A stretch of 233 nt of DNA from Escherichia coli (GTDB taxonomy: Bacteria; Pseudomonadota; Gammaproteobacteria; Enterobacterales; Enterobacteriaceae): the NCBI RefSeq assembly GCF_003334305.1, contig NZ_QOWS01000088.1. One strand, given 5' to 3'. Under the pieces are notes generated by a model. That model ran no database searches. It was not told where the DNA came from and worked only from the letters and a program-made list of their open reading frames with translations. The translations under genes and the position numbers were made by a program. This document shows positions 1 through 233 of this stretch, piece by piece. Numbering within the stretch: position 1 is the stretch's first letter; each line of letters starts with the position of its first letter.

Positions 1-12
1 CCGGATATCCGG
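1..12. repeat. Perfect 12-bp palindrome CCGGATATCCGG (central GATATC flanked by CCGG on each side)
   Basis: Read directly: positions 1-12 are identical to their own reverse complement. It abuts the window edge, so any extension of the symmetry upstream cannot be assessed. Within frame +1 it encodes P-D-I-R. Confidence 0.9.
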
Positions 13-233
13 TTAAGCCCGCATCTTTACCTGGCGACCAACAGCGCACAGGGGCCGTGGTGGATACTGGGGTGGTCAGAGCGGGTGCCGGGTGCTGAGG
101 ACGTACTGCCAGCGCCGCTGCCGCCGTACCGGGTGCTTACCGGGCTGGCAGACCGTTTCGGGCGGACGCTGACTTTCCACCGGGCAGCTAAGGGTGACGT
201 GGCGGGCGCGGTGACGGGGGTGACGGACGGCGC
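1..233 (+). CDS. Internal fragment of a protein-coding gene (frame +1, partial at both ends); hypothetical protein of unknown function
   Basis: Frame +1 (codons at 1-3, 4-6, ...) has no stop codon across all 77 complete codons, whereas frames +2 (TAA 14-16, TGA 170-172), +3 (TGA 96-98, TAA 189-191) and all three reverse frames contain stops. Hand-counted positional GC is about 73% (pos 1), 57% (pos 2), 77% (pos 3), the GC3>GC1>GC2 pattern expected of a real gene, with G enriched at codon position 1 (31 of 77). Amino-acid composition is varied (W, Y, F, H, K, D, E present), unlike the Ser/Pro/Thr/Ala-rich antisense translation. No ATG occurs anywhere on the + strand and no terminal stop is present, so both gene ends lie outside the window. 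At this GC content an open 77-codon frame arises by chance about one time in five, so confidence is moderate. Confidence 0.55.
82..95 (+). repeat. Perfect tandem direct repeat of the heptamer CGGGTGC (2 copies)
   Basis: Read directly: 82-88 CGGGTGC and 89-95 CGGGTGC. The overlapping 9-mer CCGGGTGCT (88-96) recurs at 129-137 in a different reading-frame phase, so the repetition is at DNA level rather than protein level. Confidence 0.85.
193..231 (+). repeat. Short-period coding repeat: GGTGACG motif three times (193-199, 210-216, 219-225) encoding G-x-x-x-G-x-x-x-G-x-x-x-G
   Basis: Read directly: GGTGACG occurs at 193-199, 210-216 and 219-225; 211-219 (GTGACGGGG) and 220-228 (GTGACGGAC) form an imperfect in-frame 9-bp tandem (7 of 9 identical). 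In frame +1, glycine falls at codons 65, 69, 73 and 77 (193-195, 205-207, 217-219, 229-231), giving GDVAGAVTGVTDG with Gly every fourth residue. The pattern runs to the end of the window. Confidence 0.5.

Follow-up and report, generated by a model that had tools for sequence, protein, structure and literature searches.

The short repeats found in this stretch of Escherichia coli DNA (233 nt in full, called the window below) very probably constitute an ordinary, low-frequency hotspot of slippage and deletion within the open reading frame of an Rhs gene, which gives rise to rare null alleles and is not a programmed switch. The repeats would simply follow from a coding sequence (R-V-P-G-A and Y-R-V-L) that is written with particular synonymous codons, and would not be a dedicated element. 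Their sole effect would be a passive one, in which the nascent strand misaligns at the repeats during replication, and this misalignment would lead to rare frameshifts of +7, -7 or -41 nt and hence to null alleles. The feature is a fresh example of a long-known kind, the mechanism that we infer being textbook replication slippage, and the mutation rate at the repeats would be elevated yet still low. Selection for loss of the toxin could add to this mutational bias, or replace it, in producing the recurrence described below.

All 233 nt of the window match NZ_CP028767.1 (E. coli A7) at 2341256-2341488 with 100% identity. Frame +1 is the sole open reading frame in the window, of which base 1 is nt 490 of the coding sequence (codon 164), so that positions 1-233 (plus strand, as for all features given here) hold codons 164-241 of a 1417-aa protein. 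The gene is annotated in A7 as "RHS element core protein" and is found at the yncH/pptA locus, on the 3' side of vgrG. Against the NCBIfam model RHS_core (NF041261), the protein scores 2675.8 bits over aa 1-1257 (cut-off 2000), and it also has six stretches of TIGR01643 YD repeats and a TIGR03696 Rhs-associated core at aa 1180-1257; the complete RHS core model, the YD repeats and the Rhs-associated core thus all precede a variable C-terminus, which places the protein in the family. In Pfam, DUF6531 is found at aa 46-123 (E 7e-19), the RHS repeats begin at aa 325, and the match to PAAR_motif is weak (E = 0.084), with vgrG immediately upstream. On the 3' side stand a small ORF, "RHS element protein dsORF-h1", which is presumably the immunity gene, and then an ISAs1 remnant, and the G+C content of the Rhs coding sequence is 60.5% versus 48.1% in its flanks. 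The RHS core, the upstream vgrG, dsORF-h1, the ISAs1 remnant and a mosaic structure are all shared with the E. coli Rhs elements (RhsA-H; PAAR/Rhs type VI effectors), and the host of the window is a standard Rhs-type T6SS toxin gene with nothing unusual for its family. At the C-terminal tip of the protein, past the DPIGL motif, there is an HExxH-like motif (GHEFAH), which suggests a toxin of metallopeptidase type. The intact A7 protein is found on a single contig in a collection of about 15 billion proteins, and a phage search returned no phage match for the window.

The heptamer CGGGTGC starts at positions 82, 89 and 130 of the window and the 9-mer CCGGGTGCT at 88 and 129, exactly as the earlier note had described. 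The first two heptamers form an exact tandem (82-95), which covers codons 191-195 (CGG GTG CCG GGT GCT, R-V-P-G-A) and offers a substrate for slippage by +7 or -7 nt. The third copy (130-136) falls in codons 207-209 (CGG GTG CTT, R-V-L). In addition, the 9-mers belong to a 12-nt direct repeat with one mismatch, of which the upstream arm GTGCCGGGTGCT (85-96) includes the 9-mer at 88-96 and the downstream arm GTACCGGGTGCT (126-137), 41 nt further on, includes the one at 129-137. The third copy had been described as out of phase and, for that reason, as a repeat of the DNA and not of the protein. The first statement is right for the two 9-mers, whose spacing of 41 is not a multiple of 3, but does not extend to the heptamers, as those at 82 and 130 have the same codon phase and both encode Arg-Val. 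The second statement lacks support as an account of origin, the third copy being conserved coding sequence (Y-R-V-L) in phase with the first heptamer, and stands in the sense that this copy serves as an endpoint of the 41-nt deletions presented below.

The heptamer pattern is real, yet statistically ordinary and not improbable. Of 5000 shuffles that preserved the dinucleotides of the window, 2.6% contained an exact two-unit tandem of period 7, 12% a two-unit tandem of any period from 6 to 12, and 24% an exact direct repeat of at least 9 nt, the last figure being near the one-in-three chance that the earlier note had estimated. When the codons of the entire 4.25-kb A7 Rhs gene were shuffled, 21% of the shuffles had at least one period-7 tandem. 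TRF reported no repeat in the window, which is expected with two units. The whole A7 Rhs coding sequence holds 16 exact two-unit tandems of period 5-12, compared with 5.6 expected from codon shuffles, and on this count the family is generally rich in short substrates for slippage.

In an alignment of ten Rhs sequences, the perfect tandem is limited to the N-terminal segment of rhsD/E type (A7, K-12 rhsD, DJH137 and 17MR471), and the remaining subfamilies have CGGGTGC-CGGGGGC or CGGGTGC-CGGAGGC; the rhsC gene of A7 itself has the imperfect version CGGGTGCCGGAAGC. The perfection of the tandem therefore comes down to one synonymous Gly codon (GGT versus GGG) or to a Gly/Glu change. The third copy is kept as coding sequence in nine of the ten sequences, the exception being DJH137 with CGGGAGC. 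The window is also a recombinant: positions 1-156 are of rhsD/E type, positions 1-173 are 100% identical to many rhsD genes, and positions 174-233 are identical to a different Rhs subfamily, which places the mosaic crossover in the interval 157-173, away from the repeats. Beyond the window, the A7 gene has about 65-85% identity to K-12 rhsD, and A7 is the only one among 5,426 complete E. coli genomes to match the full 233 nt at more than 91% identity.

The prediction that the number of 7-bp units would vary between strains proved correct, such variation being rare (five clonal complete genomes, GCA_002227225.1 and the 1-unit alleles), and natural 3-unit and 1-unit alleles do shift the frame of the gene, as had been proposed for the gain or loss of a unit. 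For the census of complete genomes, artificial versions of the site with three units or one unit were used as queries against the 5,426 E. coli genomes. Exactly five records matched the 3-unit query without a gap, namely Z1323CEC0003, 0007, 0008, 0011 and 0013 (chicken, South Korea); the other ~3,160 records needed a 7-nt gap, and no allele with four units or one unit was found among the 5,426 genomes. A 76-nt context of the site is present with at most one mismatch in about 2,780-2,800 records, of which the five that differ in unit number represent about 0.2%. The alignment of rhsD from these five strains confirmed CGGGTGC x3 in genes that are annotated as "frameshifted". The top matches of the 1-unit query were artefacts arising from the 3-unit strains, and the next match was TW10590, whose rhsD (annotated as frameshifted, partial) lacks one nucleotide, the G at window position 81, directly before the tandem; this deletion may be genuine or an error of the assembly.

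The five 3-unit strains represent one clone at the rhsD locus, as four of the loci are identical over 20 kb and the fifth over 12.9 kb, after which come three SNPs and an IS21 inside rhsD. This insertion, an IS21-family element (ISSso4-like istA/istB) in Z1323CEC0013, is the third lesion of an already frameshifted pseudogene. Compared with K-12 rhsD, the allele of the clone has two SNPs and, in addition, two tandem duplications of 7 bp, that of the heptamer and that of ACGGTGA at K-12 nt 2137, where ACGGTGA-ACGGCGA has become ACGGTGA-ACGGTGA-ACGGCGA, which also frameshifts rhsD. The ACGGTGA duplication is present at 100% identity in 14 complete-genome records, including Z1323CEC0010 and E2, and at 95-99% in 13 more. 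Both Z1323CEC0010 and E2 have two heptamer units in rhsD, and the rhsD of Z1323CEC0010 is otherwise identical to the 3-unit allele. The ACGGTGA duplication is thus the older of the two, being shared with 2-unit strains, and in this set the heptamer expanded a single time, in an rhsD that had already been inactivated. With its second frameshift, the clonal 3-unit gene cannot revert to ON, and the heptamer cannot act as an ON/OFF switch there. The ACGGTGA duplication may reflect slippage that is stronger, or of older date, than that at the heptamer; its frameshift product (726 aa) is found on 11 contigs, and the duplication is also seen in a different truncated Rhs gene, in strain 2013C-4830. 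A target-site-duplication footprint was considered as the source of both 7-bp insertions and set aside, since both lengthen pre-existing tandem or near-tandem 7-mers, which points to slippage. A literature search found no account of the sequencing method behind the Z1323CEC strains.

Further alleles came from the collection of ~15 billion proteins, in which the truncated product predicted for each repeat-mediated event was sought by its exact sequence, the underlying DNA then being checked. The 1-unit allele was found in a K-12-type background as a 217-aa product (EFC7040188.1; GCA_012361435.1, SRR21910384 and SRR29071032), on three contigs that are mutually identical and may represent one lineage. 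A 3-unit allele with a 197-aa product (GCA_002227225.1) came from a vgrG-linked locus whose N-terminal background is of A7 type. It is independent of the Korean clone, as window position 78 is A and the locus is a different one, the allele of the clone having T at 78 and being ybbP-linked. The 41-nt deletion between copies 2 and 3 was found in the K-12-type background as a 210-aa product (ROW42206.1) on eight contigs with several downstream haplotypes. In the A-type background, deletions of 41 nt were found with two junctions, GTGCCGGGTGCT (GTG) in GCA_002015195.1 and GTACCGGGTGCT (GTA) in DRR223717, and as these keep the mismatch base of different arms, they are separate events. Six 41-nt deletion alleles retain the G of the upstream arm, and the one in DRR223717 retains the A of the downstream arm. 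The contig with the deletion in GCA_002015195.1 is identical over 1555 nt upstream to a contig with the +7 allele. Altogether, at least six independent events were counted (two of +7, at least one of -7 and at least three of -41), the recurrence being inferred from public assemblies. The variants are found on 3-8 contigs, compared with at least 1000 contigs for the intact K-12 RhsD, and each of the three types (-7, +7 and -41) turned up both in NCBI assemblies and in Logan assemblies made independently from other SRA runs.

Using the same exact-protein look-up, several other variants were absent: the gain or loss of one G at either of two GGGG runs (four variants), a duplication of the 7 nt at 60-66 or at 100-106, a deletion of the 7 nt at 100-106, an 11-nt deletion between TACCGGG copies, and the 4-unit allele. 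Three of the five repeat-predicted classes were seen, against none of the seven non-repeat control indels (Fisher p about 0.045), in a small sample and in a comparison that relies on exact-sequence look-up, on one N-terminal background and on the truncated ORF having been called. At the protein level, the +7 product ends in ...SERVPGAGC* at 197 aa, the -7 product has 217 aa and the -41 product 210 aa, and all three stop between DUF6531 and the RHS repeats, the first of which begins at aa 325. Truncation at 197-217 aa thus removes both the Rhs shell and the C-terminal toxin, and to judge from the predicted products, the three types of allele would have lost toxin function.

These data bear on several other readings of the repeats. 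One of them is programmed phase variation, in which the heptamer tract would be the SSR of a contingency locus and would turn Rhs ON and OFF reversibly and at high frequency. It could draw on an intragenic unit whose length is no multiple of 3, on the existence of 1-, 2- and 3-unit alleles, and on the possibility of slipped-strand switching in E. coli when tracts are long, in the terms in which Torres-Cruz & van der Woude 2003 is cited in PMC4786092. This tract has only two units, the number expected from composition, it is not conserved in perfect form across the Rhs subfamilies, and switching of this kind needs rates of about 1e-5 in both directions, high enough to be seen without selection (PMC11868660). 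The switching proposed in the earlier note left no sign in the complete genomes: the five variable records among ~2,800 carriers belong to a single clone, 1-unit and 4-unit alleles are absent, and the gene of the clone had already been inactivated by a second frameshift (in one strain, also by the IS21), from which there is no return to ON. We therefore consider programmed switching extremely unlikely. A slower form of the same idea, in which the repeat cluster would be a recurrent "off" route for rhsD/E-type toxins and selection would favour disarming the toxin with the downstream immunity gene kept, with nulls arising at an elevated rate and 3-unit alleles able to revert in otherwise intact genes, is in our opinion very unlikely; if true, it would amount to a slow contingency-like switch in a species without known native SSR switching.

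At the opposite end, the repeats could be pure coincidence, with matches due to chance and variant alleles that are sequencing or assembly artefacts of a repetitive gene family. The unremarkable repeat statistics agree with this, and Rhs genes, being present in several copies, frequently cause breaks in draft assemblies, one of the protein clusters in the look-up consisting mostly of "partial" proteins. But five complete genomes, each assembled separately, share an identical +7, the -7, +7 and -41 alleles recur between NCBI and Logan assemblies, and every variant is exactly one that the repeats predict, with none of the seven non-repeat indels found; moreover, a repeat of 7-14 nt is shorter than assembler k-mers and should cause no assembly loops. 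This reading is improbable, if a little less so than the two preceding ones. Finally, the 8-mer CCGGGTGC could be a functional DNA motif (a protein-binding, recombination or uptake-type signal), possibly tied to the mosaic junction. Three copies stand within 55 nt, the same window holds a recombination junction, and in Rhs genes there is a mild local excess of the 8-mer (3-5 observed versus ~1 expected). The over-representation suggested as a check did not materialize in 151.5 kb of non-Rhs DNA of the A7 genome, with three occurrences observed against 7.2 (order-3 Markov) or 4.6 (uniform) expected; in addition, the crossover at 157-173 is 20 nt past the last copy, in a stretch conserved across all subfamilies, the copies are accounted for by conserved codons, and the secondary structure is not significant (DNA fold z = +0.81). 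A dedicated role for the 8-mer is accordingly as doubtful as programmed switching. A low-frequency hotspot of slippage and deletion in coding sequence is the reading that we retain.

The closest precedent for such a hotspot is the (CTGG)3 tract of lacI, which, for the work of Farabaugh 1978 as summarised in PMC12606429, is a hotspot for the gain or loss of one unit, with deletions also occurring between repeats of 5-8 bp. As in lacI, and in the Streisinger model of slippage, the Rhs site is a perfect short tandem inside an ORF whose mutants have exactly one unit more or less, and its deletions remove one copy of a direct repeat together with the intervening DNA, giving frameshift nulls that recur independently. 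The Rhs site thus shows perfect short repeats, mutants that correspond exactly to the loss or gain of a unit or to the loss of a copy, and a recurrence above that of non-repeat sites (p about 0.045 in a small sample). Unlike lacI, with three units of 4 bp, the Rhs tandem has two units of 7 bp and presumably a much lower rate, and the evidence comes from natural isolates and not from a mutant hunt.

In the SSR contingency loci of Haemophilus, Neisseria and Campylobacter (Moxon et al.), the unit is likewise intragenic and not a multiple of 3, and changes in unit number toggle the frame. Such loci are recognized by a tract length beyond that given by composition and by high, bidirectional rates that are detectable without selection (PMC11868660). 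The Rhs tract shares with them a frame-changing unit in an ORF, and lacks both an excess of units and frequent polymorphism: it is far below hypermutable length, varies rarely among isolates, and has no sign of reversibility or of selection that would maintain it. To our knowledge, E. coli does not use native SSR tracts for phase switching. The known variation of Rhs genes at the DNA level consists of C-terminal displacement and homologous recombination between core copies, and not of short-repeat slippage; a literature search on Rhs, phase variation and slipped-strand mispairing found no paper on slippage in Rhs genes or on the heptamer site. Heptameric SSRs have been reported to be over-represented in bacteria, and slippage related to the polymerase footprint has been proposed as the cause (PMC4692102). 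The two separate 7-bp duplications in one rhsD allele fit this excess loosely. The heptameric G-rich repeats of Xanthomonas and Nostoc described in the same work (GGGAATC and GGGGAYT) differ in their units and were rejected as a match.

The importance of these observations for biology at large is small. They provide a natural case in which two-unit tandems and direct repeats of 9-12 nt yield predictable and recurrent null alleles, as deduced from the truncated products, in a T6SS toxin gene, and slippage alleles of this kind account for some of the "frameshifted" annotations of rhsD and of Rhs-core pseudogenes. For the typing of Rhs and T6SS effectors, it follows that +7, -7 and -41 alleles are best treated as real variants with a probable loss of function, and not as assembly errors. 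The approach also offers a low-cost test for slippage at other sites, in which the frameshift product is predicted and its exact sequence is sought in very large protein collections. The bare 21-mer (CGGGTGC)3 is less suited as a query: it is common elsewhere and thus uninformative on Rhs, and among the matches listed in metagenome and genome contigs none had Rhs flanks.

Several minor observations concern the same sequences. The (CGGGTGC)3 array is common, often as part of longer arrays, in high-GC Actinomycetota (Streptomyces, Couchioplanes, Cellulomonas), in Xanthomonas massiliensis and in Neolewinella, where it is unrelated to Rhs. An inverted repeat in the window (101-113/144-156) was considered as a possible structure and discarded, given that 159 of 200 shuffles fold equally well or better than the DNA itself. 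The window also has an in-frame 9-bp tandem at 210-226, in which GGTGACGG is repeated at a spacing of 9 nt inside the translated ...AVTGVTDG; the non-rhsD subfamily has this tandem in perfect form, and sequences of rhsD type have a degenerate one. In addition, GGGTGACG recurs at positions 192 and 218.
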